NCBI GenBank assembly: GCA_031404695.1
Contig: JANNIB010000313.1
Coordinates: 1 to 54,007, forward strand
From: Acidobacteriota bacterium
GTDB taxonomy: Bacteria; Acidobacteriota; Vicinamibacteria; Vicinamibacterales; UBA2999
DNA length: 54,007 nucleotides
Direction: 5' to 3'
In this document: in pieces, positions 741-50,379 of the stretch
How the letters are laid out: each line of letters starts with the position of its first letter
How positions within the stretch are numbered: position 1 is the stretch's first letter
Made by a program: the position numbers and the translations under genes
The notes under the pieces: model-generated
Database searches by the model: none
What the model was told of the DNA's origin: nothing
What the model saw: the letters and a program-made list of their open reading frames with translations, nothing else

Positions 741-767
741 TAATGGAGTCGCCGGCATTGCCGATTG
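741..767 (+). promoter_or_regulatory. sigma-28 (FliA)-type promoter upstream of flgM
   Basis: TAAT (741-744), a 15 nt spacer, then GCCGATTG (760-767), versus the consensus TAAA-N15-GCCGATAA. It lies about 50 nt upstream of the flgM ATG. Confidence 0.55.
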
Positions 768-4189: not shown

Positions 4190-4193
4190 CGCG

Positions 4194-8654: not shown

Positions 8655-8660
8655 CTGAAA

Positions 8661-8690
8661 TCTCCTCCGTGAGTCCGGGTCGGCGTCCCT
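8661..8690 (-). promoter_or_regulatory. candidate CsrA-binding GGA motifs in the flagellin 5' leader
   Basis: The leader reads ...CCGGC-AGGGAC-GCCG...CTCACGGAGGAGATTTCAG-ATG. One GGA sits in a hexaloop closed by 4 GC pairs (8681-8694). The second, ACGGAGGAG, overlaps the Shine-Dalgarno (8662-8670). Confidence 0.45.
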
Positions 8691-8736
8691 GCCGGCCGGC
8701 ACGCGGTGGCGGTGTGCCTGCCGCGCGTCGGGGAGG

Positions 8737-8763
8737 TAATCGGAGCCCGGTCGCGGAGCTTTA
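8737..8763 (-). promoter_or_regulatory. sigma-28 (FliA)-type promoter of the flagellin gene
   Basis: The minus strand reads TAAA (8763-8760), a 15 nt spacer, then TCCGATTA (8744-8737). It lies about 80 nt upstream of the flagellin ATG. Confidence 0.65.
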
Positions 8764-16377: not shown

Positions 16378-17063
16378 ACATCCGGCTCTCAGCCACGCAG
16401 GTGTCGCGCGATCGGTGGCTCATCTCCTACGCCGACTTCATGACGCTGCTGGTGGCGTTCTTCGCGACGCTGTATGCCGCGTCGCTGACCGAGACCGCGG
16501 TGACGACCGCACCGGCTCCGACCGAGACCGCCGCGCCGGCTACCGCGCCGCCGGAGGCGCCACCGCCCCCTGATCCGGCCGTGGCCCTGCGGGCCGAGGT
16601 CGAACGTGCGCTGGCGCCGGAACTCGCCGCCGGTTACCTGCAGCTCATCGAAGATCCGCGCGGGCTCGTCATCGAAGTGCCCGAAGCCGGCGCCTTCGAC
16701 GTCGGGCAGGCGGACCTGGCGCCGGAGGCGGCCCAGATGCTGACCCGTGTGGCGACGATGCTGACGACGCTGCCCAACGCGGTGCGCATCGAAGGCCACT
16801 CCGACACCACCCCGATCCGCACCTCGCAGTACGCCTCGAACTGGGAGCTCTCGACCGCGCGGGCGACCTGCGTGGTCGAGTTCCTGGTGACGACCGCCGG
16901 CCTGGCGCCGTCGCGGCTCTCGGCCGCCGGCTACGCGGAGTTCAAGCCGCGCGCCGCCAACGACACGCCAGCCGGGCGGGCCCGCAATCGGCGCGTCGAT
17001 CTGGTGCTGCTGAACGAGCGGACGACGCGGGCCGAGGAACCCGCAGGGAGCGCCCGTCCATGA
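16374..17063 (+). CDS. motB: flagellar stator protein MotB-type (copy 1), OmpA-like C-terminal domain
   Basis: WLISYADFMTLLVAFF has the conserved TM Asp. VRIEGHSDTTPI...NWELSTARA...NRRVDLVLL is an OmpA/MotB peptidoglycan-binding domain. Confidence 0.85.
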   Translation: MNIRLSATQVSRDRWLISYADFMTLLVAFFATLYAASLTETAVTTAPAPTETAAPATAPPEAPPPPDPAVALRAEVERALAPELAAGYLQLIEDPRGLVIEVPEAGAFDVGQADLAPEAAQMLTRVATMLTTLPNAVRIEGHSDTTPIRTSQYASNWELSTARATCVVEFLVTTAGLAPSRLSAAGYAEFKPRAANDTPAGRARNRRVDLVLLNERTTRAEEPAGSARP

Positions 17064-21145: not shown

Positions 21146-21150
21146 ACGCC

Positions 21151-23061
21151 ATGGCCACCCGCGAACCCCTCTTCGACCTGCCGCGCCTGCGGCCGCGCTC
21201 CGCCGCGGCCCGCCAGCCCCTGCGCCTCCTCCACGTCACGGTCGGCCACAGCCCCCCGGGGCCGTCACTGGCCGAGGCGATCCACGCCGCCAGCCGTGGC
21301 GCTATCCGTGTCGACACCGCCCTCGGTCTCGGTCGTGCGCTCGACCATCTGCGTGCTCATCCCGCCGCTCTGGTGCTGCTGCAGGCGGAAGACGCCGACC
21401 TGGCCCGGGTCGCGCTGGCCGAAATCAAGCGCACCCACCCGGCGCTCCCGGTGGTGCTGCTCACCGATGCCGACGACGCGGCCGCCGTGGCGGCGGTGCG
21501 CGCCGGCGCCGAAGACTGCCTGTCACGCGCGGCGGCTACCGGGCCCCGGGTCGTGCGGGCGCTGCTGTGCGCCCTCGAGCGCACCAGCCACGCGGCGACG
21601 CTGCGCACGCAGGCGGTGACCGATCCGCTCACCGGGCTGCCGAACCGGCACGCGCTGCAGAAGGCGATCGATCATGCCATCGCGATGGCCCGCCGCAAGA
21701 GCCGCGCGCTGGCCGTGCTGTTTGTCGACCTCGACGGCTTCAAGGACATCAACGACGCCTGCGGCCACGAGCAGGGCGATCGCGTGCTTCAGGAGATCGC
21801 GCGCCGCTTTGCCGGCCGCACCCGCAGCATGGACACGGTGGCCCGCATCGGCGGCGACGAGTTCGTGGTGGTGATGGAAGATCTCGACGACAGCCGGTTC
21901 GCGTCCACGCTCGCCGGCAAGCTGCTCACGGCGGCCGCCGCGCCGATCGTGGTCGAGGGCCGCGTGACCGAGCTCACCGCCAGCGTCGGCATCAGCGTGT
22001 TCCCGGGGGATGGCGACGACGCCGCGGCACTCATCCGTCATGCCGACACCGCGATGTACGCGGCCAAGGCGGCGGGGAAGAACCAATACCGCTACTACCG
22101 CGCGCAGATGAACGAGCACTCGCGCGCCCGCACCGTGCTCGATGCGGCGCTCGCACGCGCGTTCGAGGGCGGCGAGTTCGAGCTGCACTACCAGCCCGTG
22201 TGGCAGTCTTCGGCGCGGCGCATCTCGTCGTGCGAAGCGCTGCTGCGCTGGCGCCGGCCCGGGCACGGCCTGATGCTGCCGGGGGCCTTCCTTGCGGCGG
22301 CTGACGAATCCGGCCTCGCGGGACGCCTCGCCCAGTGGGTGCTGACACGCGGTGGCGCCACCGCCCGGCGGATGCGCGAGGCCGGGTTCGACGTGCCGGT
22401 GTCGATCAACCTGTCGCGCCGGCAGCTGGTCGAAGGCGACATCGTGTCGTGCCTGGGGCGCGTGCTCGCAGACGGCACCGACGCCGCCGCGCTGCGCGTC
22501 GAGATCGCCGAGTCGGTGCTCGTCGCCGACGACCCGCGGGTGCACCAGGTGCTGGCCGACCTGGCCGGGCTCGGCATCGGCGTCATCGTCGACGACTTCG
22601 GCAGCGGCGTGTCGTCGCTGCGGGCGCTGCGCCGGGTACGCCCGCACAGCATCAAGATCGACGGCGCGCTGGCGCGTGAGCTGCCCGACGGGCACGACGC
22701 GGCGGCGCTGGTCAGCGCGGTCGTCTCGCTCGGCAAGACGCTCGGCGTGCACGTGGTGGCCGAAGGGGTCGAGACCGAGGCGCAGTCACGCCGTCTGCGG
22801 ACGCTCGGCTGCGACGACCTGCAGGGCTACTATTTCGGGCACGCGCTGCCCGATGACGAGTGGCTCGCGTATCTGCGCTGGGCGTGCACGGCGGTGGTAG
22901 GAACCGACGGGCCGGCCCCGGCGCTCGTGGTGCGGCGTCCTGGCCGTAGCCGCCGGGCCGCTGCGACCCCGTTCGCTGACGGCGCCGGCATGCCGGGCAT
23001 TCCCGGCGCGCCGCGCCTGACCAGGACCGGGCAGGTCGTGTTCGGCCGCTTCACGGATTGA
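21151..23061 (+). CDS. receiver-like domain plus GGDEF plus EAL protein (c-di-GMP turnover)
   Basis: RSMDTVARIGGDEFVV has the RxxD I-site and an intact GGDEF. The EAL side shows EALLRW, NLS, EIAES, DDFGSG, KIDGAL, EGVET and QGYYF. The N-terminal receiver-like fold has LVLLQAED where the acceptor Asp is expected. Confidence 0.9.
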   Translation: MATREPLFDLPRLRPRSAAARQPLRLLHVTVGHSPPGPSLAEAIHAASRGAIRVDTALGLGRALDHLRAHPAALVLLQAEDADLARVALAEIKRTHPALPVVLLTDADDAAAVAAVRAGAEDCLSRAAATGPRVVRALLCALERTSHAATLRTQAVTDPLTGLPNRHALQKAIDHAIAMARRKSRALAVLFVDLDGFKDINDACGHEQGDRVLQEIARRFAGRTRSMDTVARIGGDEFVVVMEDLDDSRFASTLAGKLLTAAAAPIVVEGRVTELTASVGISVFPGDGDDAAALIRHADTAMYAAKAAGKNQYRYYRAQMNEHSRARTVLDAALARAFEGGEFELHYQPVWQSSARRISSCEALLRWRRPGHGLMLPGAFLAAADESGLAGRLAQWVLTRGGATARRMREAGFDVPVSINLSRRQLVEGDIVSCLGRVLADGTDAAALRVEIAESVLVADDPRVHQVLADLAGLGIGVIVDDFGSGVSSLRALRRVRPHSIKIDGALARELPDGHDAAALVSAVVSLGKTLGVHVVAEGVETEAQSRRLRTLGCDDLQGYYFGHALPDDEWLAYLRWACTAVVGTDGPAPALVVRRPGRSRRAAATPFADGAGMPGIPGAPRLTRTGQVVFGRFTD

Positions 23062-38690: not shown

Positions 38691-39800
38691 TCAGCGCGTC
38701 GAGCGGTACAGCCCGTCGAAGGCGCCGACCATCTTCGTCCAGTCGTAGCGCGCCTCGACCATCGCCCGGGCGCGCTGCACGATGCGCGCCCGCCGTCGAT
38801 CGGTGAGCGCGGCGCCGAGCACGGCGGCGGTGGCAGCGGTGCCCCGGCACGGCACCGTCCACCCGGTGCGGCCGTCCAGCAGGAAGTCTTCGATGCCGGC
38901 CACGGCGCGGGCAGCCACCGGCACGCCGAGGGCCATCGCTTCGAGCACGGCGAGCCCCTGGCCTTCGTCGGCCGAGAGCGACACGAAGAGCGACCACCGG
39001 CGCACCAGCCGGCTCACATCACGGACTTGCCCGGCCACGTGCACGGCGTGGCCCAGTTGCAGGCGCGCGATGGTGTCGGTGAGCTGACGGGCGTAGGCGG
39101 CATCGGCGACCGGGCCGACGAGTTCGAGGCGCGCCTCGGGCACGGACGGCCGCAGCCGCGCGAAGGCCTCGACGAGCGCCACCTGGTTCTTGCGCGGCTC
39201 GATGCGGCCGACACAGCCCAGCACCGGCGCCCCGGTCGGCTGGTCCGTGGTGGTCCGGCAGGGAAGCGTCGCGAGATCGAGCCCCCAGGGCAAGTAGCTG
39301 AGACGGCGCGCCGTGACGCCGCCGGCGCGCAGCAGCCGGCTGTAGGCGTGCGCCGAACTGACCACCACGTCCGCCTGGCGAAACGCCCACAGGTCCTGCG
39401 TGTTCATCCACGCGGGCCGATCGGGACCCCAGCTGTACATCTGGCCCACGAGGCGCACGCGGCTGCCGGCGATGTCACGGGCCAGGGCGGCCAGACCGGT
39501 GGGCGTCCCGGCGTGCGCGTGGATGACCCCGGGCCGCAGCTCGTCGATGAGGGCCGCCAGACGCGCGGCGCTGGTCCAGTAAGTCGCGGCATCGCGCTGG
39601 AACGTGTCGATGTCGACGTGTCTGACGCCGGCGCGCGCCAGCTGGCGGCGATAGGACGGCCAGTCTGACAGCCCGTCGTGTCGAGCCGTCGTCACGAGCA
39701 CCACCGGCCTGTGCCGGACCTGTGCGGCGCACAGCGCCGAGATGACGCGACCGGCGCCACTCCAGAGAAAGGGCGCGACATGCAGGATGGGCGCAGACAT
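38691..39800 (-). CDS. glycosyltransferase GT1/GT4-like
   Basis: ILHVAPFLWSGAGRV at the N-terminus, plus VGRIEPRKNQ...LFVSLSADEGQGLAVLEAMALGVPVAARAVAGIEDFLLDGRTG. Confidence 0.8.
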   Translation of the reverse strand: MSAPILHVAPFLWSGAGRVISALCAAQVRHRPVVLVTTARHDGLSDWPSYRRQLARAGVRHVDIDTFQRDAATYWTSAARLAALIDELRPGVIHAHAGTPTGLAALARDIAGSRVRLVGQMYSWGPDRPAWMNTQDLWAFRQADVVVSSAHAYSRLLRAGGVTARRLSYLPWGLDLATLPCRTTTDQPTGAPVLGCVGRIEPRKNQVALVEAFARLRPSVPEARLELVGPVADAAYARQLTDTIARLQLGHAVHVAGQVRDVSRLVRRWSLFVSLSADEGQGLAVLEAMALGVPVAARAVAGIEDFLLDGRTGWTVPCRGTAATAAVLGAALTDRRRARIVQRARAMVEARYDWTKMVGAFDGLYRSTR

Positions 39801-39814
39801 CGAGGCGACGGCCG

Positions 39815-39820
39815 ATTATA
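39815..39820 (-). promoter_or_regulatory. possible sigma-70 -10 box (TATAAT) for the minus-strand glycosyltransferase
   Basis: The minus strand reads CTCTATAATCGGCC, 14 nt upstream of the ATG at 39800. A perfect TATAAT is rare at this GC content. No convincing -35 is present, and the mRNA would be nearly leaderless. Confidence 0.3.
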
Positions 39821-39866
39821 GAGCCGCGGTCACCGCGCCACCGCATCCATCCGGGCGCCGCCCCGG

Positions 39867-39893
39867 TCAAGAAATCCTCCGGCACGCCGATTG
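39867..39893 (+). promoter_or_regulatory. sigma-28-type promoter upstream of motA2-motB2
   Basis: TCAA (39867-39870), a 15 nt spacer, then GCCGATTG (39886-39893). The -10 octamer is the same as at flgM and at 41701. Confidence 0.5.
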
Positions 39894-39935
39894 CTCCAGT
39901 GGTCACGGGCCTCACGCCCGCGCCGCACACACGAC

Positions 39936-40808
39936 ATGTTCGTCATCATCGGGCTTCTCATCGTCATCGGATCGGTGCTTGGCGGCTACGTCATGCACCA
40001 CGGCAAGATCGCGCTGCTGAACCAGCCGAACGAGTTCCTCATCATCTTCGGCGCCGCCATCGGCGCCATGCTCATCAGCACGCCGCTGCCGGTCGTCACC
40101 AAGATGGCCAGGCAGATCGCCGGCGTGATGTCGCCGGGGCTGACCAAGAAGGACTACTCGGAGCTGCTGGCGATGCTCTATCAGCTGTTCCGGTTGTCGC
40201 AGCAGACCGGCATCATGGCCCTCGAGGCGCACTTCGAGAATCCGAAGGAGAGCACAGTGCTCTCGAAGTATCCGAAGTTCCTCGCCCGCCACGAATCGCT
40301 CGACTTCCTGTCGGATTCCATCAAGGTCATCATCGTCGGCGGTATGGCGCCGCACGACCTCGAGGCGCTGATGGACGAAGACATCTACGTGCACCACACC
40401 GAAGCACGGGCGCCCTCGGCGGCACTGGCCAAAGTGGCCGACGCGTTCCCGGGCCTGGGCATCGTCGCCGCCGTGCTCGGCGTCGTCATCACCATGCAGG
40501 CGATCGACGGGCCGCCGTCGGAAATCGGCGAGAAGGTCGGCGCCGCGCTGGTCGGCACGTTCCTCGGCATTCTGCTCTCCTACGGCATGTTCGGCCCGCT
40601 TGCGACCAATCTCGAAACGCGGGTCGACGACGAGGGCAACTACGAGAAGTGCATCAAGGCCGGCGTGCTGGCGACCTTCAAGGGGCTGCCCCCCGCCATC
40701 GCCATCGAGTTCGCGCGCCGCGTGCTGCCGCACGAAGTGCGACCGAGCTTCGAGGAGACCGAGAAGTTCTGCAAAGCGGCGGGCAAGCCCGAAGCGATGG
40801 CGGCGTAA
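39936..40808 (+). CDS. motA: flagellar stator protein MotA (copy 2, enterobacterial-like)
   Basis: MFVIIGLLIVIGSVLGGYVMHHGKI and ALVGTFLGILLSYGMFGPLATNLE closely follow the classical MotA pattern. Confidence 0.93.
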   Translation: MFVIIGLLIVIGSVLGGYVMHHGKIALLNQPNEFLIIFGAAIGAMLISTPLPVVTKMARQIAGVMSPGLTKKDYSELLAMLYQLFRLSQQTGIMALEAHFENPKESTVLSKYPKFLARHESLDFLSDSIKVIIVGGMAPHDLEALMDEDIYVHHTEARAPSAALAKVADAFPGLGIVAAVLGVVITMQAIDGPPSEIGEKVGAALVGTFLGILLSYGMFGPLATNLETRVDDEGNYEKCIKAGVLATFKGLPPAIAIEFARRVLPHEVRPSFEETEKFCKAAGKPEAMAA

Positions 40809-40811
40809 GCG

Positions 40812-41684
40812 ATGAAGCCGACCCAACCCATCATCATCATCAAGAAGAACCGCGGCGGCCATGCCGGGCACCACGGCGGCGCCTGGAAGGTGGCCTACGC
40901 CGACTTCGTCACGGCGATGATGGCCTTCTTCCTCGTCATGTGGCTGGTCAGCTCCAGCCCCGAGGTGAAGAAGTCGGTGGCCGGCTACTTCCGCGATCCC
41001 GGCGTCTTCGACTACGAGAAGTCCACCGGCATGATGGCCGGCGGCATGACCGGCATCGACGAGGGCCGCGCGCCCGAGGTGGCGACGCTGCCCGATGCGG
41101 CCGCGCTCACCGTCGAGCGCCAGCGCATGGAGCAGGCCGCCGAACACATCCGCGACAGCCTGGCCGAGACCGGCGGGCTCGAGCAGCTGCGTGACCAGAT
41201 CGAATTCTCGGTGACCGAAGAGGGGCTGCGCATCGAGCTGCTCGAGAAAGACGGCTCCAGCTTCTTCGACAGCGGCAGCGCCGTGCTGCGCGGCGAAAGC
41301 GAACGCATCCTCAGCATCATCGGACGCGAGCTCGGCACGATGAGCAATGACGTCGTCGTCGAGGGCCATACCGACAGCCGGCCGTTCGGGGCCGGACGGA
41401 CCTACTCGAACTGGGAGCTGTCGGCCGATCGCGCCAACGCGGCACGGCGGGTCATGGAGGCCGTGGGGCTCAACCCCGGCCAGGTGCAGAGCGTGCGCGG
41501 CTTTGCCGCCACGCAACTTCGTCTCCGGGAGGCCCCGATGGACCCACGCAACCGGCGCATCTCGATCGTCGTCCGCAGCCAATCGCGGACCCGTCTCGAG
41601 GAGTCGCTTCGTCCGACCGCCGACCCTGCCGCGGCCCCGCCGGCCGGGAGCGCGCCACCCCCGGCCGCGCCGCCGGTCCACTAA
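40812..41684 (+). CDS. motB: flagellar stator protein MotB (copy 2)
   Basis: HGGAWKVAYADFVTAMMAFFLVMWL has the TM Asp. VVVEGHTDSRPF...SNWELSADRANAARR...NRRISIVV is the OmpA-like domain. Confidence 0.92.
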   Translation: MKPTQPIIIIKKNRGGHAGHHGGAWKVAYADFVTAMMAFFLVMWLVSSSPEVKKSVAGYFRDPGVFDYEKSTGMMAGGMTGIDEGRAPEVATLPDAAALTVERQRMEQAAEHIRDSLAETGGLEQLRDQIEFSVTEEGLRIELLEKDGSSFFDSGSAVLRGESERILSIIGRELGTMSNDVVVEGHTDSRPFGAGRTYSNWELSADRANAARRVMEAVGLNPGQVQSVRGFAATQLRLREAPMDPRNRRISIVVRSQSRTRLEESLRPTADPAAAPPAGSAPPPAAPPVH

Positions 41685-41708
41685 AGCTTTCGCCCCGGCG
41701 GCCGATTG
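41682..41708 (+). promoter_or_regulatory. sigma-28-type promoter overlapping the motB2 stop codon
   Basis: TAAA (41682-41685, includes the TAA stop), a 15 nt spacer, then GCCGATTG (41701-41708). It lies about 90 nt upstream of the kinase-like gene. Confidence 0.6.
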
Positions 41709-41725
41709 GCCCACCGGGGAACAAC

Positions 41726-41745
41726 CGCCGGCCCGGAGGCCGGCG
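41726..41745 (+). terminator. GC hairpin, either a motB2 terminator or a leader structure of the downstream operon
   Basis: CGCCGGCC-CGGA-GGCCGGCG is a perfect 8 bp stem. There is no U-tract. It lies downstream of the sigma-28 match. Confidence 0.4.
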
Positions 41746-41794
41746 CCGGCTGGCGGACGACCGCTGCCGGGTGCCCGTTCCCGCGAGGTATTCG

Positions 41795-43360
41795 ATGCCA
41801 GCCCCGCTCTCTGCCGCTTCCGTGTTTCCGACGCCCCTCGCGCCCGCCGCTGATGCCGGCGCGCCCGTCGCCGAGCTGGTCGTGTCGCCGGACGGTCGCA
41901 TCCTCGAATGTGGCGCCGCCGCCGCCCGCGTGCTCGGCCTGGCCGACCCGCGCGAGGCGATGGGCGTGCATCTGAGCCTGTTCTGCCGCGACGCCGACCG
42001 TCTGGCCGAGGCGCTGGGGGCCGCCGCCGTCACCGGGCGCCTGGAGCGCTGGGACGCCGACTTCGTGAAGCTCGACGGCAAGGCCCTGCCGGCGGTCGTG
42101 GACCTCGTGGCATCGTTCGAGGCGCCGCGCACGCTCACATCGCTGCGCGTGTCGATCAAACCTGTCACGGCCTGGCCCACGCCGGCACCGGGACCGACCG
42201 CCGTGCCCACCCGGCGCGACGAGGCCAGCCAGCTCTCGCACGAACTGAACAACCTGCTCGCCATTATCAGCGGTCACGCCGAGTGCCTCGTGACGCCCGG
42301 CGCCGGCGCCGCCGATGCGGGCGCCGTCGAAGCCATCCGCCGCGCCGTCGCCGCCGCCGCGCAGGTGTCGGCCCGCGTGCGCGGCCTGAGCCAGCGCCGC
42401 GCCCAGGCCACGCGGGCGGTCGACATCGATGCGTTGCTCGCCGCCGTGCAGGACGACCTGCGGCGGACCTTCGGCCATCGCTTGTCGGTGGCCGTGCAGC
42501 CGGCGCCCCATCCATGGACGGTCTCGGTCGACCGCGCGGTCGTGCACCATGCGCTGGCGGCCCTGGCCGCCGAGGCCATCGAATCGATGCCGCACGGGGG
42601 CACGCTGAGCTTCCGCACGATGAACGTCGAGGTGGGTCTGCGCCGGCCGATGTCGCCGGTGTCGGCGCGTCCGGGCCGCTACGTGCGCGTCGAGGTCAGC
42701 TACCTGACGACCGAGATGCCGGCCGAGAGCACGCCGCAGCGGCGCGACAGCGACGAAGCCGGCATGGCGGCCATCGAAGCGCTGCGCCGCGCCGGCGGCC
42801 GCGTCATGGTCGATACCGACGGTCATCGCGTGGCCAGCGTCGTGCTGCTGCTGCCGTCGGACGGGGTGACGGTGCTGCGTCCGCGCAACACCGAGGCCCG
42901 ACGCGAGTCGGGCCAGACCGTGGTGCTGGTCGAAGGCGATCCGACCCATCGCCGCCTGCTGCAGGCGGTGCTGCGCGGGCAGGGGCACGACGTGGAGACG
43001 GCGGCCACGGCCGCGGAGGCCGACCGGATCACGGGCCTGCAGGGTGATGCGGTGCTCGTGACCGACCGGCTGCCGGGCGCGTCGCCGGCCGAAGCCGCCG
43101 CGTGGCTGGCCGCGCGGCCGGCGCTCAAGGTGCTGGGCACCTCCGACGAGGTGGCGCGAGCCCTGGCGCTGCTGACCGAACCGCGTCAGGCGCTGGCGAT
43201 TTCGCGCCCGCTCGCGGCCCTGCAGATCACCGAAGCCGTGAAGGCGCTGTTTGACGGACAGGCGGCCCTCGACGGGCCCGAGAGCGGTGCCGACGTGCTC
43301 GCACCGCTGTGGTTCAAGCGCGACGGTAGTGAGCCGATTCATCCATTGGAGGCGTCCTGA
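41795..43360 (+). CDS. hybrid sensor histidine-kinase-like protein (PAS-like, HisKA, degenerate catalytic domain, receiver)
   Basis: The H-box is EASQLSHELNNLLAIISGHAE. The region where the N/G1/G2 boxes should lie reads ALAAEAIESMP...VEVSYLTTEMP...EAGMAAIEAL, with no NxxxN, DxGxG or GxGxG. The C-terminal receiver is VVLVEGDP...AVLVTDRLPG. ATG at 41795 with a GAGG Shine-Dalgarno; the GTG at 41771 is an alternative start. Confidence 0.8.
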   Translation: MPAPLSAASVFPTPLAPAADAGAPVAELVVSPDGRILECGAAAARVLGLADPREAMGVHLSLFCRDADRLAEALGAAAVTGRLERWDADFVKLDGKALPAVVDLVASFEAPRTLTSLRVSIKPVTAWPTPAPGPTAVPTRRDEASQLSHELNNLLAIISGHAECLVTPGAGAADAGAVEAIRRAVAAAAQVSARVRGLSQRRAQATRAVDIDALLAAVQDDLRRTFGHRLSVAVQPAPHPWTVSVDRAVVHHALAALAAEAIESMPHGGTLSFRTMNVEVGLRRPMSPVSARPGRYVRVEVSYLTTEMPAESTPQRRDSDEAGMAAIEALRRAGGRVMVDTDGHRVASVVLLLPSDGVTVLRPRNTEARRESGQTVVLVEGDPTHRRLLQAVLRGQGHDVETAATAAEADRITGLQGDAVLVTDRLPGASPAEAAAWLAARPALKVLGTSDEVARALALLTEPRQALAISRPLAALQITEAVKALFDGQAALDGPESGADVLAPLWFKRDGSEPIHPLEAS

Positions 43361-43365
43361 GGCGC

Positions 43366-44472
43366 ATGCCCCTGGGGACAGCGCGCGAGGGATTCATGAC
43401 GAACAACGCGGTTATCTCGCTCGATCTCAGACGTCGCGGACAGGAAAGCAACGAAGCGCTGGTGACGCGCCTGCTCGACGAGGTGCTGGCCTGGGCGCGA
43501 GACTTCCTCGCCGCCGACGAAGAAACCAGCTGGGGCGCCCTGGCGCTGCGCTTCGAGTCCTGCCGCACGGCCATTGCCGGCGGCGCCCCGTCCACCGACG
43601 TAGAGGCGCTGGCCGCGGCCTGTCTCACCGAGGGACGCGAGCTCATCCAGCACCTCCAGCAACTGCGCAAACAGCGCGTCGAAGAATCGTTCGCCGTCGT
43701 CGAGGCGTTGCGCGATGTGATGACGACCATGGGTGCCGAGATGAGCACCATGCACACCAGCCTCACGCAGTCGACCGAGCGCTTCGAGGCGATCGGCCAG
43801 CTGAACGACGCGCGCCAGATGAAGGTGCGACTGATGGCCGAAGTGCTCACGCTGAAGCAGGTCGCCGCCCGGCGCCGCAGCGCGTGGGAAGAGACAGCCC
43901 GCACGTTGTCGCAGAAGGTGGCGGCGCTCGAGCGCGACTTGTCGGTGGTGAAGGGCGAGGCCTCGACCGACTCGCTGACCGGCGTCGCCAACCGGCGCGG
44001 CTTCGACGAGACGCTCGAGCGCTGGCTGACCAAGGCGGGCTCCGGCTTCGTGCTGGCGGTGCTCGACATCGACGACTTCAAGCGCATCAACGACGCGCAT
44101 GGGCACGCGGTGGGCGACGAGGTGCTGCGCTACGTGGCGAAGTGCCTGATGCAGTCGTTCCGCAGCGACGACCTGGTGGCGCGCGTCGGCGGCGACGAGT
44201 TCGCGGTGCTGGCCGCCGGCTTGACCTCGCGCCAGGCGGAACACCGCCTGGCGGGCGTGGTGACGCGCATCGCGGCCGGTAATCCGGGGGACGAAGGACG
44301 TCCGGCCTGCGTGCCGACGCTCAGCTGCGGTCTGTCGGAGTGCGCGGCCGGGGATACGCCGGCCAGTCTCTACGAACGCGCCGACGGCGCGCAGTACATC
44401 GCCAAGCGGCAGGGCAAGAACCGCGTCGTTGCCAAGGACGCCAGGTTGCTGCGCGACCTCGGAAAGCACTGA
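43366..44472 (+). CDS. diguanylate cyclase (coiled-coil N-terminus plus GGDEF)
   Basis: DSLTGVANRRGF, LDIDDFKRINDAHGHAVGDEVL and RSDDLVARVGGDEFAV (I-site plus intact GGDEF). The ATG at 43396 is an alternative start. Confidence 0.9.
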   Translation: MPLGTAREGFMTNNAVISLDLRRRGQESNEALVTRLLDEVLAWARDFLAADEETSWGALALRFESCRTAIAGGAPSTDVEALAAACLTEGRELIQHLQQLRKQRVEESFAVVEALRDVMTTMGAEMSTMHTSLTQSTERFEAIGQLNDARQMKVRLMAEVLTLKQVAARRRSAWEETARTLSQKVAALERDLSVVKGEASTDSLTGVANRRGFDETLERWLTKAGSGFVLAVLDIDDFKRINDAHGHAVGDEVLRYVAKCLMQSFRSDDLVARVGGDEFAVLAAGLTSRQAEHRLAGVVTRIAAGNPGDEGRPACVPTLSCGLSECAAGDTPASLYERADGAQYIAKRQGKNRVVAKDARLLRDLGKH

Positions 44473-44480
44473 GGCGGGAC

Positions 44481-45560
44481 ATGCGGGATACCGGGGCGCG
44501 CCGCGTTCTCATCGTCGACGACTCGCCCGCGTTCACCGATGCGCTCAAGCGCCTGCTGACCGCCGAGGGTTTCGTCGCCGACGTGCTGCACGACAGCGAA
44601 GGCGTGATCGGCGCCGTGGCGCAGTTTGCGCCCGATGTGGTGCTGCTCGACGTGGACCTGCCGGGGGCCAGCGGCTTCGAGGTCTGCCGCCGGTTGAAGC
44701 GCTACGAGGCCACCCGACTCATCCCGGTCGTGCTGCTGACGGGTCTCGTGGGCCGCGAGCACCGCCTGGCCGGGATCGAGGCCGGTGCCGACGACTTCCT
44801 GACCAAGCCGTTCGATTCCTCCGAACTCACCGCCCGCGTGCGATCGCTGTCGCGCCTCAAGCGCTACACCGACGAACTCGAGTCGGCCGAGTCGGTCATC
44901 GTGAGCCTGGCACTCACCGTGGAAGCGCGCGACGCCTACACGGAGGGCCACTGCGACCGTCTGTCGAGTTATGCGGTGGCGCTCGGCCGGGCGATCGGCC
45001 TGTCGGCCGACGACCTGTGGGCGCTGCAGAAGGGCGGCCTGCTGCACGACGTGGGCAAGGTGGGCATCCCCGATGCCATCCTGCTGAAGCAGGGGCGGCT
45101 GACGCCGGAGGAATACGAGATCGTCAAGTCGCACACCGTCATCGGCGAACGGCTCTGTTCGGGCCTGCGATCGCTGACCTCGGTGCGGCCGATCATCCGG
45201 CAGCATCACGAGCGCCTCGATGGGCGCGGTTATCCGGATGGCTTGAAGGGCAGTGAGGTGTCGCTGCTGGCGCAGATTATCGGCGTCGTCGACGCCTTCG
45301 ATGCGATGACGACCGACCGGCCCTACCGCCGCTCGCTGGGCATCGACCGCGCCTTCGACGAGCTGCGTGGCGACGTGACGAACGGCGCGATGGACGCCAT
45401 GCTGGTCGAGCGCTTCATCGACCTGGCACCGGCCATCCACGCCGTGGCACCGATGCGCGGCGGGTGGGACGACGCGCATGCGGCACGCACCGTAGAGACG
45501 TCGCCCTCAGCCGAGCCGCCCAGGCCAGTGACGCACCTGGAGGCAGTCGCTGGCCGCTAG
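44481..45560 (+). CDS. response regulator with HD-GYP domain (RpfG-type c-di-GMP phosphodiesterase)
   Basis: The receiver is VLIVDDSP...VVLLDVDLPGASG...TKPF. The HD-GYP part has EGHCDRL, LLHDVGKVGIPD and HHERLDGRGYPDGL. Confidence 0.9.
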   Translation: MRDTGARRVLIVDDSPAFTDALKRLLTAEGFVADVLHDSEGVIGAVAQFAPDVVLLDVDLPGASGFEVCRRLKRYEATRLIPVVLLTGLVGREHRLAGIEAGADDFLTKPFDSSELTARVRSLSRLKRYTDELESAESVIVSLALTVEARDAYTEGHCDRLSSYAVALGRAIGLSADDLWALQKGGLLHDVGKVGIPDAILLKQGRLTPEEYEIVKSHTVIGERLCSGLRSLTSVRPIIRQHHERLDGRGYPDGLKGSEVSLLAQIIGVVDAFDAMTTDRPYRRSLGIDRAFDELRGDVTNGAMDAMLVERFIDLAPAIHAVAPMRGGWDDAHAARTVETSPSAEPPRPVTHLEAVAGR

Positions 45561-46816
45561 AACTCGCCCCCGGGACCGCGTGGCACCGCCATGCGGTCGC
45601 CACCGCCCCCGCCGCCGCCCGAGTAGCCCGAGCCGCTGACGCCGCTCGAACCGCTCGAACCCGGGTTGTCGCCGCCACTCATGCCGCTGCTGCGGCCGCC
45701 GTCGCCGCCTGACGAGAACGTCGTCTCGATCGGCCGCACCTGCGTGTAGCCGCGGCCGTTGACCAGACGGCCCTCGGCCACCGGTTCGGTGGGCGTCGAG
45801 GGGCCGCCGGTGCCCGGCTGCGTCGCGACCCAGTCGGGCCCGTAGGGACCCCAGTAGCCGTAGTAGTAGCCGGGATAGCGCGAATACATCAGCGGGTCGT
45901 AGCCGGCGCAGCTGCCCCAGTAACTCGACGACGCCCAGCCCAGATTGGAATAGCAGTTGAAGAGCGCCGCCGGACCGACCAACGGCGAGAAGAACGGATC
46001 GGTCATCGACGAGATGCCGATGCCGCCGCCGCCCCCGCCGAAGCCGCCGGAGGTGGCGCGACGCACTTCGAACTTCGCCGGATAGGTGACGCCCACCATC
46101 AGGTCGATGACGCGGTCGCCGACGCCGGCGTCGGCCATGGCGATGAGGGCCTTGGCGTTGAGGCGGTACGGCGTCGGCGCTTCGGAAATCGCCGCCTGCA
46201 CGCCGTCGGCGGGCAACGCGCCGCTCAGATCGATGACGTCGGCCACGGTGAACGGCGCCATCGACTCGGCCGACGGCCCGCGCGTGCCGGCGGCGCGGGT
46301 GAGGGTGGTGCCGTCGGGCAGTTGCTGGTTCGACGCGCGCACGAGGCGGCTGACGCGCACGTTGGTGGTGCCGTCGGCTTCCACGGTTTCCACGTCCACC
46401 ATCGCCTGGCCGGCGACGAAGAACGACGCGGTGGCGAGTGTACGCGGCGCGCCGCCGTCGCAGGCCACGGTCGCGCGGCGATACAGGCGGTGGCCGGTGG
46501 CCGACCAGCGCGCCGTTTCGGTGCCTCGGCAGCCGTCAGCATCGACCGGGCGCGCCGAGCCGTCGGCCACCCGGGTGTCTTCGCCGACGCGCTGGCCGCC
46601 GACGATGGTCGTGACCGTCACGCCCGTCCCCGCCGGCGCGATGCAGATGCGGGAGCCGGTGCCGGCCGGATCGTCCACCGCGCGCCAGCAGCCGAGGAAG
46701 GGGTTCCAGCGGGCATCAATGAGCGAGGGCGTGGTGGCGGCTGGCGACTGCGCCTGTGCGGGGGCCGCGACGGCGGCGAGTGAGAGCAGGGATGCAGCGA
46801 AGATGGCTCGGGTCAT
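45557..46816 (-). CDS. secreted hypothetical protein with Gly/Tyr/Ser-rich low-complexity C-terminus
   Basis: The signal peptide is MTRAIFAASLLSLAAVAAPAQAQ. The C-terminal part includes YPGYYYGYWGPYGPDW and GSSGSSGVSGSGYSGGGGGGG. Confidence 0.6.
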   Translation of the reverse strand: MTRAIFAASLLSLAAVAAPAQAQSPAATTPSLIDARWNPFLGCWRAVDDPAGTGSRICIAPAGTGVTVTTIVGGQRVGEDTRVADGSARPVDADGCRGTETARWSATGHRLYRRATVACDGGAPRTLATASFFVAGQAMVDVETVEADGTTNVRVSRLVRASNQQLPDGTTLTRAAGTRGPSAESMAPFTVADVIDLSGALPADGVQAAISEAPTPYRLNAKALIAMADAGVGDRVIDLMVGVTYPAKFEVRRATSGGFGGGGGGIGISSMTDPFFSPLVGPAALFNCYSNLGWASSSYWGSCAGYDPLMYSRYPGYYYGYWGPYGPDWVATQPGTGGPSTPTEPVAEGRLVNGRGYTQVRPIETTFSSGGDGGRSSGMSGGDNPGSSGSSGVSGSGYSGGGGGGGDRMAVPRGPGGEF

Positions 46817-46850: not shown

Positions 46851-47639
46851 CTAGAAGACCAGCTTCAGGCTGGCGCCGAGTCGGGCGCCGGCCAGATCGA
46901 TTGGTTCGAAGTCCACGAAGTCGGCGCTGAGCGGGGCCGAACTCCAGGTGTAACGCGCTTCGCCGGTGACGTAGAGCCGGCGATAGACGCGCAGGTCGGC
47001 GCCGGCGAGCACGTGCGCGCTCGGCGCCCATCCCGTCGACCGGAAGGTGTCGTTGAAGACGCGCAGCGTCTGGAAGTCGACGAAGCTGCCGTGCTGCTCG
47101 AACTGGTACTTGATGGCGCCGGCGCCGGCGCCGACAAACGGGGTGACGGCGCGCGGCACCCAGGCGAAGCGGCTGATGCGGCGGCCGGAGGGCAGCAGCG
47201 ACCAGCGCACGGTGCCGGCAATCTGATGATCCTGCCGCATCGTGGTCTGCGTGATCGGCAATCCGGCGTTGTCGATGAAGTCGCGATACTCCGACGCCGT
47301 CTGTGACTTGGCGTTCTCGTAGAGGACGGCGACTTCGACGCGCGGCGAGATGGCGACGCCGATGCGCCCGCCGACGATCGGCGTGTTGAAGTTCTTCCGC
47401 TCGAGCGTCAACTGCTCGGTGAGGAAGTCGTAGAGGTCGCTGCCGGCGCTGGCGAAGAGGAAGCCGCCATCCACCGACACGAAGCCTCGGGGCCGGCCGA
47501 GCATGAAGTCGGACGGGGCCGATGGCGTGATGACGGGCGTGGGCGCCGACTGGGCGCGGGCGCCGGGGACGCTGGCGACGAGCACCGCGAGCGCGATGAG
47601 GACTGCGCGAAGGAACAGGACCGACCGCCCGTGGTTCAT
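46851..47639 (-). CDS. small outer-membrane beta-barrel protein
   Basis: The signal peptide is MNHGRSVLFLRAVLIALAVLVASVPGARAQS. The sequence has alternating hydrophobic strands and a terminal LKLVF (C-terminal Phe). A GGGAGG Shine-Dalgarno precedes the ATG at 47639. Confidence 0.7.
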   Translation of the reverse strand: MNHGRSVLFLRAVLIALAVLVASVPGARAQSAPTPVITPSAPSDFMLGRPRGFVSVDGGFLFASAGSDLYDFLTEQLTLERKNFNTPIVGGRIGVAISPRVEVAVLYENAKSQTASEYRDFIDNAGLPITQTTMRQDHQIAGTVRWSLLPSGRRISRFAWVPRAVTPFVGAGAGAIKYQFEQHGSFVDFQTLRVFNDTFRSTGWAPSAHVLAGADLRVYRRLYVTGEARYTWSSAPLSADFVDFEPIDLAGARLGASLKLVF

Positions 47640-47728
47640 GTTGCGCCTCCCGACAGACACGGCACTCGGTTACCAAGCTAGCACGGAGACCGGCAGGTCG
47701 AGCGGAATTCGCCGGGGAGGGGGCGAAC

Positions 47729-47900: not shown

Positions 47901-49667
47901 TCAGGTGGCGGCAACGGCGGTGTCGGAGCCGCGACGCCGTCGGGCCGAGCCCGGGGCGGCCCCGGCCCACCAGTCGGTGCCGCCGGTAGCGTCGAGTTCC
48001 AGCAGCCGCAGCAACTCGTCGGCCGGCACGGCCCGCGAGAACAGGAAGCCCTGGCCGAGCGGGCAGCTCAGCTTCTTGAGCGCCAGCAGCTCCGACGGCG
48101 TCTCGATGCCCTCGGCGACCGCCTCGATGCCGAGGATGGCGGCCACTTCGATGGCGTACTGCACGATGGCGGCGCTGCCGCCGTGTTGCGGGTTGCCGCC
48201 CAGGTAGCTGCGGTCGATCTTGAGCGTGTGGACGCCGAGCGCGCGCAGGTGTTCGGTGGCGGCCAGGCCGAGGCCGAAGTCGTCGAGCGCGAGCTTGAAC
48301 TCGGCCTGCCGCAGCGCCTGCGCCACCTCGACCGCGCGTTCGAAGTTCGACATCACATCGAGCTCCGACAGCTCGAGTTCGAGGTCGCCGGGCTGCACGC
48401 CGGCCTCGGTCACGGCGTTGGTGAGCCGGGCGACCAGGTCCGGCGCCAGGAACTGCGAACTCGAGAGGTTGACCGAGATACGCATGGCCTGCGCCGGCGC
48501 ATGCACCGTCCGCCACTGCGCCAGGGCCCGGCACGCATCGCGGATGGTGCGCCAGCCGAGCGGCACGAGCTGCCCGGCCTGCTCGAGCAGCGGCACGAAG
48601 ATGTTGGGACGCAGCAGCCCGCGCGCCGGATGCCGCCAGCGCAGCAGCGCCTCGGCCCGCACGATTGAGCCGTCACCCAGGTGCACGGTGGGCTGGAACC
48701 ACATCTCGAACTGCCGGTCGCGGATGCCGAGGTCGAGGTCGTTGGCAAACTCCATGAACTCCGAGGCGGCGGCCCGCGCCGAGTCGTCGAAGAGCTGCGT
48801 TTCGGCGGGACCGCGGGCCTTGGCGCGCACCAGCGCCGAGTAGGCGTCGCGCAGCAGGTCGTCCACCGAGTCGTGCCCGGCGCTGTTGATGGCGATGCCG
48901 ACGCAGGCCGAGGCGAACAGCCGATGGCCGGCGATTGGAAAGGCCGCCGCCAGCGCGTCGTGCAGCCGGGCCGCGACGCGCAGCGCATCACGGGCGTCGA
49001 CGAGGTTCGAGATGACCAGCGCGCACTCGTCGCCGCCAAGCGGCGGCAGCGCGACGTCGCCGGCGACCGCGTGGGTGTCGTGGACGCCGATGCGGGCCAC
49101 GAGATCGCCCTCACGCAGGCACCGCGCCAGGCGCCGCAGCGCCTCGCGCAGCAGCAGGTCGCCGCCGTCGTGGCCGAGCAGCTCGTTGAGCGCCCCGAAG
49201 CGGTCGAAGTCCACCAGCAGCAGCGCAAAGCGCGCCGCCGGCGTCTCGCGCGCCGATGTGATCAGGCGATCGACGTGCGCCCTCAGAGCGAAGAGGCCCG
49301 GTAGTCCGGCCAGGGTGTCGGTGCGGTTGCGCTCCTGCACGTCGGCCAGGGTGCCGGCCAGACGCACGGCGCGGCCGGCGGGATCGCGGTCGGCCACGCC
49401 TTCGGCGACCACCCAGCGAAAAGCGCCGCCGTGCGCGCGCAGCCGGTGTTCGCAGCGGAAGGCCGGCGCGGCGCCGCTCAGGTGGCGGTCGAGCGCGTGC
49501 ATGACCGAGGCGACATCATCCGGGTGCACGCGGCCGAGCCACGCATGCAGTGACTCGACGGTGTTGCCTTTGGCATCACCCAGCAGGCCATGCCACGCCG
49601 CCGAATAGGCGACGCGATCGGAGGTGACGGTCCACTCCCACGTTGCGCTCAGGGGCGCGTCAGGCAT
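47901..49667 (-). CDS. PAS, degenerate GGDEF, and EAL protein (probable c-di-GMP phosphodiesterase)
   Basis: The PAS part is WEWTVTSDRVAYSAAWHGLLG...VHPDD. The GGDEF site reads ARIGVHDTHAVAGDVALPPLGGDECALV, i.e. an insertion plus GGDEC. The EAL side is intact: EALLRW, NLS, ELSE, DDFGLG, KIDRSY, EGIET and QGFLF. Confidence 0.88.
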   Translation of the reverse strand: MPDAPLSATWEWTVTSDRVAYSAAWHGLLGDAKGNTVESLHAWLGRVHPDDVASVMHALDRHLSGAAPAFRCEHRLRAHGGAFRWVVAEGVADRDPAGRAVRLAGTLADVQERNRTDTLAGLPGLFALRAHVDRLITSARETPAARFALLLVDFDRFGALNELLGHDGGDLLLREALRRLARCLREGDLVARIGVHDTHAVAGDVALPPLGGDECALVISNLVDARDALRVAARLHDALAAAFPIAGHRLFASACVGIAINSAGHDSVDDLLRDAYSALVRAKARGPAETQLFDDSARAAASEFMEFANDLDLGIRDRQFEMWFQPTVHLGDGSIVRAEALLRWRHPARGLLRPNIFVPLLEQAGQLVPLGWRTIRDACRALAQWRTVHAPAQAMRISVNLSSSQFLAPDLVARLTNAVTEAGVQPGDLELELSELDVMSNFERAVEVAQALRQAEFKLALDDFGLGLAATEHLRALGVHTLKIDRSYLGGNPQHGGSAAIVQYAIEVAAILGIEAVAEGIETPSELLALKKLSCPLGQGFLFSRAVPADELLRLLELDATGGTDWWAGAAPGSARRRRGSDTAVAAT

Positions 49668-49752
49668 CCCGGAAGGGAGAGGTGTCCCAGCCACCACGGT
49701 GGAGCGATGGTAGCCTCGCGGCGGCCGCAGGCCAAGAGGGAAGCTGGCGCCG

Positions 49753-50151
49753 TCAGGCCGGCAGCAGCTTTTCGACGCTCCGCACGAGGTGTTCGACGTC
49801 CACGGGCTTCGCCTCGAAGGCATCGCAGCCCACCCGCATCGCCATGTTGCGGGAGTCGGTCTGGGTGTTCTCCGAGAGCGCCACGACGAGGATGTGACGG
49901 GTGACCGGGTCGGCTTTCAGCCGGCGCGCCGACTCCCAGCCCTCGAGGGCCGGCGGATCCATGTCCATGAGAATCACGTCGGGCTTGTCGGTGCGGACCG
50001 CTTCGAGCGCCTCGCGTCCGGACCGGGCAAAGCGCGTCCGGAAGCCGCGGGCGAGCAGTGAGCGCACCATGGTCTGGCGTACCGTCTCCTGGTCGTTGAC
50101 GACGAGAACGCTCCTGCCGGCGGCGCTGTGTGGTGTGGGGCCCATCCTCAT
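49753..50151 (-). CDS. single-domain CheY-like response regulator
   Basis: VLVVNDQE, DVILMDMDPPALEG, LVVALSE and EAKPV are receiver motifs. The start is uncertain: ATG at 50151 or GTG at 50193. Confidence 0.8.
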   Translation of the reverse strand: MRMGPTPHSAAGRSVLVVNDQETVRQTMVRSLLARGFRTRFARSGREALEAVRTDKPDVILMDMDPPALEGWESARRLKADPVTRHILVVALSENTQTDSRNMAMRVGCDAFEAKPVDVEHLVRSVEKLLPA

Positions 50152-50379
50152 CGTCCTGCGGGCTTCAGGAATCGTGCCAGACCGCGGTCCCACGCAGTTA
50201 TGGGCCGTAGCGTGTCAGGCAGACGCCGAAATTGTGCGTGGCGGCGAAACTATGGAGGCTGACGACAAGAATTGCTGTCGGCCGGATGACAGCCGCATGA
50301 GGGCGGGCGGCAGCGACCCGGCAGTTGCACGTCGTTGCCCATCGGCGGGAGGTCTGCGCTACCATCAATGGTTCCGCCC

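Follow-up and report, generated by a model that had tools for sequence, protein, structure and literature searches.

The window analysed here, a stretch of 54,007 nt from contig JANNIB010000313.1 of assembly GCA_031404695.1 (Acidobacteriota bacterium; Vicinamibacterales, UBA2999), carries a flagellar stator operon, motA2B2, followed by three genes that encode a protein resembling a hybrid histidine kinase (the kinase-like protein), a GGDEF diguanylate cyclase, and a REC-HD-GYP phosphodiesterase. On balance, we favour the view that these genes form a late-flagellar module for the turnover of cyclic di-GMP (c-di-GMP), served by sigma-28-type promoters in series and equipped with a kinase-derived sensor that acts by phosphotransfer or as a phosphatase. 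The evidence for this view comes from a promoter motif that recurs at fixed places in orthologous loci and from a family of proteins in which the ATP site of a histidine kinase has been lost.

The candidate promoter of the kinase-like gene consists of TAAA at 41682-41685, a 15-nt spacer, and GCCGATTG at 41701-41708, so that the TAA stop of motB2 (41682-41684) sits within the -35 element, an overlap first pointed out in an earlier reading made from the letters of the window alone (the sequence-only reading) and placed by it at the same coordinates. Compared with the sigma-28 consensus that we used (-35 TAAA(G), -10 GCCGATAA, 15 nt from TAAA to GCCG), the site has two mismatches, which fall in the last two positions of the -10 element. 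A search of both strands for TAAA-N15-GCCGATAA with at most two mismatches returned two matches in the window versus 0.17 from shuffles, and two matches were reached in only 2 of 100 shuffles. The second match (8737-8763, minus strand) lies about 84 nt 5' of the ATG of the flagellin gene fliC. A weight matrix trained solely on sites of other genomes and then run over the window ranked the 41682 site highest, at 30.4 bits, followed by the sites at 39867 and 43314 and those of flgM and fliC (Table 1), with no further site above 12. The 41682 site, which had been called the best sigma-28 match in the window, is thus both the top-scoring site of the matrix and one of the two matches to the consensus.

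A scan with one genome per species identified orthologues of the kinase-like gene at 20 loci. The nearest of these, L001, comes from a metagenome-assembled genome (MAG) of an uncultured Acidobacteriota bacterium whose proteins are 98% identical to those of the window across the studied region, and the remaining loci are from MAGs of Vicinamibacterales and Acidobacteriota. The motif T[A/G/C]AA[G/C]-N14-GCCGAT is found at the motB2 stop in all 20 loci, with a 14-nt spacer and flanks that diverge. Its -35 element reads TAAAG in 13 loci, TGAAG in five, and TAAAC and TCAAG in one each, and the invariant columns of the intergenic alignment are mainly the -35 and -10 elements, a GG at the predicted start, the Shine-Dalgarno (SD) sequence GAGGT, and the ATG. 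The motB2 gene ends in TAA in 14 of the 20 loci, as against 7 of the 38 genes of the window. In its strict form, T[ACG]AAG-N14-GCCGAT, the motif has 3 matches across 618 kb of unrelated loci and 49 across 236 kb of orthologous loci, where every match lies on the coding strand and at one of three syntenic positions. A phylogenetic footprint of this kind, over 20/20 loci with a spacer free to vary, gives strong backing to the sigma-28 assignment. The motif also lies 5' of fliC, flgM, and motA2 in the same window, and fliC, flgM, and motA are classical late genes of the FliA regulon. On these comparative grounds, we take it to be the sigma-28-type promoter motif of the lineage, of which the 41682 site is a conserved instance.

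The motif before motA2 is retained by 17 of the 18 orthologous loci in which the region is covered, and here too the spacer varies. A third motif lies within the kinase-like gene itself; the window and 13 of the 16 loci with a long version of that gene have it in its strict form. The Ile codon within its -10 element is ATT in 16/16 loci, compared with an ATT share of Ile codons of 8.2% in the genes of the window and of 17/166 elsewhere in the kinase-like orthologues. The Pro before that Ile is always encoded by CCG and the next Pro by any of the four codons, and the residue before the Lys varies (F, L, or V) with a codon that is always NTC, which keeps TCAAG. These codon constraints at 43314-43340 indicate selection on the DNA itself, and as the third motif is inside the kinase-like gene, the cyclase and the phosphodiesterase could be transcribed separately from it.

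A scan of positions 39700-46000 revealed no sigma-70-like promoter and no intrinsic terminator on the plus strand. With no terminator before the module and a sigma-28-type promoter of motA2's own, any read-through would come from the same regulon; all transcription routes thus lead to one regulon, and transcription by read-through only would leave the class of regulation unchanged. Judged from these motifs, the module is not driven by one promoter, as three sigma-28-type motifs stand in series from motA2 to the kinase-like gene. The proposal that sigma-28 drives the module from the motB2 stop is therefore upheld in that the motif is there in 20/20 loci with a variable spacer, and has to be amended in that this site is not the sole driver.

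The kinase-like protein gives weak Pfam matches to PAS, to HisKA (E=7e-4, below the gathering score), and to REC (0.015), and no HATPase_c match at E<=1, nor does such a match appear in any of the approximately 48 members of its family. These homologues, which are 39-93% identical, all come from metagenomes or Acidobacteriota MAGs, and the next distant homologues (25-30% identity) are genuine PAS-HisKA-HATPase_c-REC kinases. An alignment of the family profile with the genuine hybrid kinases (hhalign) runs over the full length with a probability of 99.95% and E=3e-38. In this alignment, the N box NLxxNARDAMPxGG of the genuine kinases corresponds to aLaalAA[E/D/G/S]AieaMPHGG in the kinase-like family, where the Mg-binding Asn is replaced by a variable residue in the columns ALAA[E/D/G/S]A (ALAAEA where the genuine kinases have NLxxNA) and the MPxGG segment behind the N-box helix is kept. 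The G1 box, DTGxG, is replaced by SYLTx, the F box and ATP lid (FEPFFTTK) by a 10-residue deletion, and the G2 box, GTGLGL, is lost and aligns to g-x-A-A-L-E; the loss of G1, F, and G2 together with the 10 lid residues is common to every family member. The sequence-only reading had described an intact H-box (SHELNN) in a protein in which it could not find N, G1, or G2 boxes and had named a profile alignment with the ATP-binding domain as a check. That alignment recovers a homologous CA domain and no functional ATP site, as all four boxes (N, G1, F, and G2) have been replaced, and the His of the H-box, H149, is invariant in the family alignment. With all of its ATP-binding motifs lost, the kinase-like protein would therefore be unable to autophosphorylate.

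What the family has kept is as distinctive as what it has lost. N152 and N153 are invariant along with H149, as is the whole ELNN that follows the His and makes up the HExxN phosphatase/transfer motif of HisKA proteins. Conservation is highest in the pseudo-CA domain, with 57 of 153 positions invariant, and the PAS domain, with 41 of 103, and lowest, among the domains, in the receiver. Such strong conservation of the pseudo-CA and PAS domains rules out simple decay, and the idea that the gene is a decaying pseudogene was rejected in view of the approximately 48 homologues, which share 60-98% identity, and the constrained pseudo-CA domain. The receiver has a nearly invariant D424 and T449, of the acidic pair it retains one residue (D382), and the Lys is replaced by an invariant Arg in R471-P472, so that the RP in place of KP that had been noticed in the window is a property of the family; receivers of known structure score about E=1e-6 against the family profile.

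Searches of solved structures with the family profile gave the receiver plus a partial match of the DHp and N-terminal CA regions to CckA (5idj); the C-terminal half of the CA domain was not placed by this search, and profile-profile alignment was needed for it. The AlphaFold2 model (predicted local distance difference test (pLDDT) 63) shows a PAS domain, a two-helix DHp domain, a lidless CA-like domain of alpha/beta type, and a receiver, and its Foldseek matches are PAS-kinases, plant phytochromes, ShkA, DivL, and LvrB. A CckA model is also among the best NCBIfam matches of the protein. Two further features of the protein were observed. A C-terminal peptide, PIHPLEAS (residues 511-521, 43325-43357), is nearly invariant and is absent from the short-form orthologues described below; the synonymous sites of HPLEAS vary freely, so the constraint is at the protein level, and the peptide could be a docking or degradation tag. 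An invariant RRxxD motif (R316, R317, and D320; 42740-42754) lies in the loop found where the ATP lid has been deleted. This motif, modelled at low confidence and absent from the short-form clade, resembles a c-di-GMP I-site.

Both enzymes of the module are intact, as the sequence-only reading had it when it called them an intact cyclase with an I-site and a REC-HD-GYP phosphodiesterase. The cyclase matches Pfam GGDEF (PF00990) with E=1.9e-36 over the full domain (profile 1-161 of 161) and contains RSDD-LVARV-GGDEF, which places the I-site five residues before GGDEF; neither the GGDEF motif nor the I-site Arg varies in the family alignment. AlphaFold2 (pLDDT 80) models the N-terminal 190 residues of the cyclase as helical with a long coiled-coil stalk, and the top Foldseek matches are DgcB, which combines a coiled coil with a GGDEF domain, and the SiaD-SiaC complex. 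An architecture of this kind, with GGDEF on a coiled-coil stalk, is typical of cyclases that a partner regulates via the stalk. The conserved start of the gene is that at 43396, and an ATG at 43366 was rejected as it is not kept even in the 98%-identical L001. The phosphodiesterase matches Pfam HD_5 (3.6e-33) and Response_reg (5e-26). Its receiver is canonical (D13, D14, D57, T87, and K109), and its HD, HHE, and GYP motifs are present in HDVGK and HHERLDGRGYP. The nearest solved relatives of its HD-GYP part are PmGH (4mcw, active) and V-cGAP3 (5z7c), and that of its REC part is PleD.

The gene order is the same in 17/17 spanning loci, namely a glycosyltransferase gene (minus strand), motA2, motB2, the kinase-like gene, the GGDEF gene, and two unknown genes (minus strand), with the HD-GYP gene after the GGDEF gene in 15 of the 17; one further locus, L018, ends within the kinase-like gene. 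The description of the module as three tightly spaced genes appended to a stator operon is thus borne out by gaps of 35 nt and 8 nt between the genes and by synteny with motA2B2 in every orthologous locus. Two loci, L011 (8637-8822) and L016 (8614-8821), lack the HD-GYP gene and retain the kinase-like and GGDEF genes, and in both of them the intragenic -35 element reads TCAAA. In L017-L020 (about 6038, 2780, 5942, and 5987, respectively), the kinase-like protein is a short form of 366-378 residues that has neither the PAS domain nor the C-terminal tail.

We suggest that motA2B2 and the three genes that follow would belong to the late sigma-28/FliA-type flagellar regulon, under promoter-like elements of the form T(A/C)AAG-N14-GCCGATT before motA2, at the motB2 stop, and within the 3' end of the kinase-like gene. 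Late-flagellar transcription would then deliver a cyclase, a receiver-gated phosphodiesterase, and a PAS sensor unable to use ATP. The coiled-coil diguanylate cyclase would be under product inhibition, and the sensor would be a derivative of a hybrid histidine kinase that keeps the His and HExxN with the ATP-binding motifs all lost. The kinase-like protein would most likely pass phosphoryl groups to, or strip them from, the receiver of the HD-GYP protein, a likely target as the only canonical receiver in the operon, and its own atypical receiver is perhaps a second phosphoryl target. PAS input would in this way set c-di-GMP hydrolysis in cells with a newly built flagellum. We infer the phosphotransfer or phosphatase activity, as well as any effect on the motor, from these features; expression only once the hook-basal body has been completed is likewise presumed, as is a control of motor or stator, and any stator effect is suggested by the conserved gene order only.

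A number of points weigh against this reading. Promoter activity in vivo, sigma-28 dependence, and the start sites are all deduced from sequence, and fliA is not found within the 54-kb window. Among the open reading frames of the window that were scanned, there is no true kinase that could be the phosphodonor and, by Pfam and NCBIfam, no PilZ/YcgR-type or other c-di-GMP effector, the absence of which leaves the presumed link to stator function with gene order as its one footing. With Arg for Lys and a missing acidic residue, the receiver of the kinase-like protein may not be phosphorylated, and the partnership with the HD-GYP receiver is not obligatory, given that L011 and L016 have no HD-GYP gene. 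In L017-L020, the motif, TGAAG-N14-GCCGATTC, overlaps or lies inside the annotated N-terminal codons, and it could serve the kinase-like gene only via a conserved ATG/GTG 12-14 nt after the -10 element, which would make a nearly leaderless mRNA. Finally, on the contig of P0129 (JGI sample 3300041967), a cyclase homologue with 46% identity is followed by a REC-HD-GYP gene, with motB about 6 kb away, and where the kinase-like gene would be expected, this contig encodes a true CHASE8-HAMP hybrid kinase with HPt, along with two unknown proteins.

Some of the same observations would fit a different role for the kinase-like protein. It is possible, if clearly less probable, that the protein is a phosphorylation-independent scaffold or allosteric regulator that binds the cyclase stalk or the phosphodiesterase and gates activity on a PAS signal, making its contacts via the pseudo-CA domain or the C-terminal HPLEAS peptide, much as DivL does for CckA and SiaC for SiaD. 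This would account for a protein in which the pseudo-CA and PAS domains are the most conserved and the receiver the least, and for an HPLEAS peptide kept as amino acids with free synonymous sites. It would also suit a cyclase that has no sensor domain of its own and whose helical N-terminus and stalk are like those of SiaD, which is activated by a partner binding the stalk, as well as the two loci in which the kinase-like and cyclase genes stay together without an HD-GYP gene, and DivL is among the structural matches. A pure scaffold, however, would not need the His, the HExxN, and the receiver Asp, which are invariant or nearly so, and the short-form orthologues lack the tail. We regard as improbable the related idea that the protein is a receptor for a nucleotide or c-di-GMP, bound in the pseudo-CA pocket or by the atypical receiver, that would provide feedback from the neighbouring cyclase. 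The invariant R316, R317, and D320 form an RxxD-like element in the loop that replaces the lid, the pseudo-CA domain is strongly constrained without catalytic boxes, ShkA is among the fold matches, and the named families nearest to the protein are CckA-type kinases; histidine kinases that bind c-di-GMP have been documented, RavS being an example (PMC6707612). The RRxxD loop is, however, absent from the short forms and modelled with low confidence, and the receptor reading is drawn purely by analogy. More improbable still is that the protein remains a working histidine kinase with an unconventional mode of ATP binding. In the model, the CA domain still has an overall Bergerat-like alpha/beta layout, and MPxGG is conserved, but the Mg-binding Asn has become E, D, G, or S, there is no G1, F, or G2 box, 10 lid residues are deleted, and Pfam HATPase_c gives no match at E<=1.

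The promoter itself can also be questioned, in that the motif at the motB2 stop might not be an active promoter and the module might be expressed only by read-through from motA2, the conservation of the motif then having some other constraint as its cause. Given that no terminator separates motB2 from the module, that the -35 element is TGAAG in five loci, and that the motif overlaps coding sequence in L017-L020, this deserves mention, but we consider it very unlikely: the -35 and -10 elements are invariant or nearly so at a fixed spacing, in contrast to a 14-nt spacer and flanks that diverge, fliC, flgM, and motA2 are preceded by this motif too, and TAA stops are over-represented at motB2. 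Even then, the module would stay in the sigma-28 regulon, the motA2 promoter being of the same type. At the other extreme, our preferred account of a late-flagellar module with a phosphotransfer or phosphatase sensor might be extended to a local c-di-GMP circuit dedicated to the stators of a dual-stator bacterium. Here the kinase relic would be a PAS- and nucleotide-sensing switch, with c-di-GMP bound by the RRxxD loop or the pseudo-receiver, that would divide phosphoryl groups, or the binding of partners, between a cyclase regulated by its stalk and the HD-GYP protein, and so choose between MotA2B2 and the MotCD-like stator for a newly completed flagellum; the nested promoters, of which one lies in coding sequence, would set the stoichiometry of sensor to enzymes. 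This extension is speculative, and we regard it as improbable.

The closest regulatory parallel is in enterobacteria. In Escherichia coli, FliA drives pdeH/yhjH and ycgR, the FliA promoter of motAB(-cheAW) lies within flhC, and many FliA sites are intragenic (PMC4183435, PMC13031359). As in class 3 of E. coli and Salmonella, a sigma-28-type promoter here would put a c-di-GMP-degrading enzyme in the late class with motAB, fliC, and flgM; flagellum assembly would thereby set c-di-GMP turnover, as in E. coli, and the promoter is likewise embedded in the 3' part of the upstream gene. The arrangements differ in that the phosphodiesterase is a receiver-controlled HD-GYP protein rather than a stand-alone EAL protein, that a cyclase and a pseudo-kinase appear to be co-transcribed with it in a module fused, by conserved gene order, to the stator operon, and that three sigma-28-type motifs, known from sequence alone, stand in series. 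Unlike in E. coli, no YcgR-like effector was found among the open reading frames of the window that were scanned.

For the kinase-like protein, precedents are the kinase-derived phosphotransferases with degenerate CA domains, ChpT, Spo0B, and PhyT, which act by phosphotransfer or as phosphatases and not by autophosphorylation (PMC5898713, PMC5964349). Like ChpT of Caulobacter, Spo0B of Bacillus, and PhyT/PhyP of Sphingomonas, it has a DHp domain with a conserved His and a CA-like fold without ATP motifs. Unlike them, it adds a PAS domain and an atypical receiver (Lys to Arg) and so amounts to a degenerate hybrid kinase, and it is not detectably related to their families beyond the general kinase fold. 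The pairing of a hybrid-kinase-type sensor with a neighbouring REC-HD-GYP gene is reminiscent of RpfC/RpfG of Xanthomonas, and the activity of RpfG-type REC-HD-GYP proteins depends on receiver phosphorylation; RpfC, however, is an active kinase with HPt, whereas the present sensor has neither an ATP site nor HPt and shares its module with a cyclase. Caulobacter DivL, CckA, and ShkA share the PAS-DHp-CA(-REC) plan and a non-canonical use of the CA domain or receiver, and c-di-GMP binds the CA domain of CckA and the pseudo-receiver of ShkA. DivL is without the His and keeps its CA domain, while CckA and ShkA are active kinases, and the kinase-like protein thus differs from both types. As for the stators, the window has a MotC/MotD-like set (15466-17063) and a MotA/MotB-like set (39933-41684), like the MotAB and MotCD of Pseudomonas aeruginosa. 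The dual stators of that organism are under c-di-GMP control through the PilZ protein FlgZ; in contrast, no PilZ protein was identified among the open reading frames of the window that were scanned. By analogy, we hypothesise that c-di-GMP might be linked to stator choice in this organism as well.

The predicted leader of the kinase-like transcript contains an 8-bp GC hairpin, CGCCGGCC-CGGA-GGCCGGCG, at 41726-41745, with a 4-nt loop and no U-tract after it, just as had been noted before. In DNA of approximately 72% G+C, the leader of the window folds 1.6 standard deviations better than shuffles, and its 5' GGGGAAC can pair with a GUUCCC directly before the SD sequence GAGGU. The minimum-energy folds of 14 orthologous leaders (L003-L016) mostly show a closing stem around two GC hairpins, a Y shape, whose hairpin sequences vary between lineages, with C-G to U-A changes in hairpin 1. 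The z-scores of these 14 leaders against shuffles range from +0.36 to -2.8. RNAalifold on a MAFFT alignment of the intergenic regions failed to bring out the hairpins, as their variable stems were misaligned, and no known riboswitch or leader RNA, such as c-di-GMP-I/-II, was matched in Rfam at E<=1 in 39700-46000. As the z-scores are weak, we claim no structured RNA element here, only a recurrent topology, and the predicted leader structure is suggestive only. A sequence at the head of this leader, GGGGAACAAC, occurs exactly twice in the window, at 772-781 in the flgM leader and at 41716-41725 in the kinase-like leader. Both copies lie a few nt 3' of a sigma-28-type -10 element, at predicted transcript starts, and may represent a shared initial transcribed sequence or a regulatory site.

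Pfam and NCBIfam scans of the open reading frames identify the window (71.6% G+C) as a flagellar region. In addition to flgM, it encodes flgK, flgL, fliW, and csrA, and, on the minus strand, fliS, fliD, and fliC, together with a large flagellin-glycosylation island that includes DegT, NeuB, PseB-like and Maf-like proteins, and many glycosyltransferases. The MotC/MotD-type pair is embedded in this island and has no sigma-28-type motif above threshold; with this second stator pair, the organism has a dual stator system like that of P. aeruginosa. The fliW-csrA pair is at 3746-4445, and the flagellin leader (8653-8730, minus strand) has ACGGAGGAGA at its SD sequence, which suggests, at the level of sequence motifs, a FliW-CsrA-flagellin translational circuit. 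Circuits of this kind are known from Bacillus and Campylobacter. Other c-di-GMP proteins are encoded nearby, namely a GGDEF-EAL protein with a receiver remnant (20917-23061) and a PAS-GGDEF-EAL protein (47901-49823, minus strand) whose gene is preceded by that of a single-domain receiver (49753-50193, minus strand) and is syntenic in most orthologous loci; c-di-GMP enzymes thus adjoin both stator sets of the window. The two conserved syntenic genes that follow the module, at 45557-46816 and 46851-47660 (both minus strand), have no family match in Pfam or NCBIfam. The protein encoded by the former has a signal-peptide-like N-terminus and a Gly/Ser-rich C-terminus, and the stops of this gene and of the convergent HD-GYP gene overlap by 4 nt.

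Table 1. Positions of the promoter-like motifs, genes, and protein domains discussed in the text.
Feature	Position	Strand	Matrix score (bits)	Details
Sigma-28-type promoter of flgM (reference)	741..767	+	16.7	TAAT-N15-GCCGATTG, relaxed match
flgM	819-1121			Anti-sigma-28 factor; above TIGR03824 cutoff (NCBIfam)
fliC (flagellin gene)	ATG at 8653	-		
Sigma-28-type promoter of flagellin gene (reference)	8737..8763	-	12.9	TAAAG-N14-TCCGATTA; only other match in window with <=2 mismatches
MotC/MotD-like stator pair	15466-17063			PRK09109 226 bits, PRK09038 182 bits
Sigma-28-type promoter of motA2B2	39867..39893	+	28.4	TCAAG-N14-GCCGATTG; 40 nt 5' of motA2 ATG
motA2, MotA-type stator protein	39933..40808	+		TIGR03818 357.5 bits (cutoff 303.8); Pfam MotA_N, MotA_ExbB
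motB2, MotB-type stator protein	40812..41684	+		Pfam MotB_plug, OmpA; PRK09041 235.7 bits, below curated cutoff 277
Sigma-28-type promoter of kinase-like gene	41682..41708	+	30.4	TAAAG-N14-GCCGATTG; -35 overlaps motB2 stop
Predicted 5' leader, ~79 nt	41716..41794	+		Inferred start; holds GC hairpin
Kinase-like gene	41795..43360	+		521 residues
PAS domain of kinase-like protein	residues ~23-125			
DHp domain of kinase-like protein	residues 141-202			H149 and HELNN
Pseudo-CA domain of kinase-like protein	residues 205-357			
Atypical REC domain of kinase-like protein	residues 373-487			D424, T449, R471
Third sigma-28-type motif	43314..43340	+	25.6	TCAAG-N14-GCCGATTC; within last 16 kinase-like codons; 55 nt 5' of GGDEF ATG
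GGDEF (diguanylate cyclase) gene	43396..44472	+		
REC-HD-GYP phosphodiesterase gene	44481..45560	+		

The principle that FliA ties c-di-GMP turnover to the completion of the flagellum is already established in enterobacteria, and the present case, which brings no new concept, is of value for its breadth and for the variety of mechanism it adds. New are the composition of the module (pseudo-kinase, cyclase, and HD-GYP protein), its fusion to the stator operon of an Acidobacterium with dual stators, a nested set of three predicted promoters, and an uncharacterised family of pseudo-kinases. The Vicinamibacteria are an abundant and mostly uncultured soil lineage, and we know of no experimental work on their flagellar regulation or c-di-GMP signalling, a combination for which a literature search found nothing. 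For this lineage, the comparative data supply a sigma-28 consensus, T(A/C)AAG-N14-GCCGATT, and a minimal regulon composed of fliC, flgM, motA2B2, and the c-di-GMP module. In the final codons of the kinase-like gene, the predicted promoter neatly illustrates how a regulatory element can impose the choice of codons, with ATT in 16/16 loci where about 8-10% would be expected. The kinase-like family, for its part, is a clean natural case of a hybrid kinase without an ATP site that keeps the His, the phosphatase motif, and a CA fold under strong constraint, and it should be useful for asking what role a CA domain plays once ATP binding is lost.

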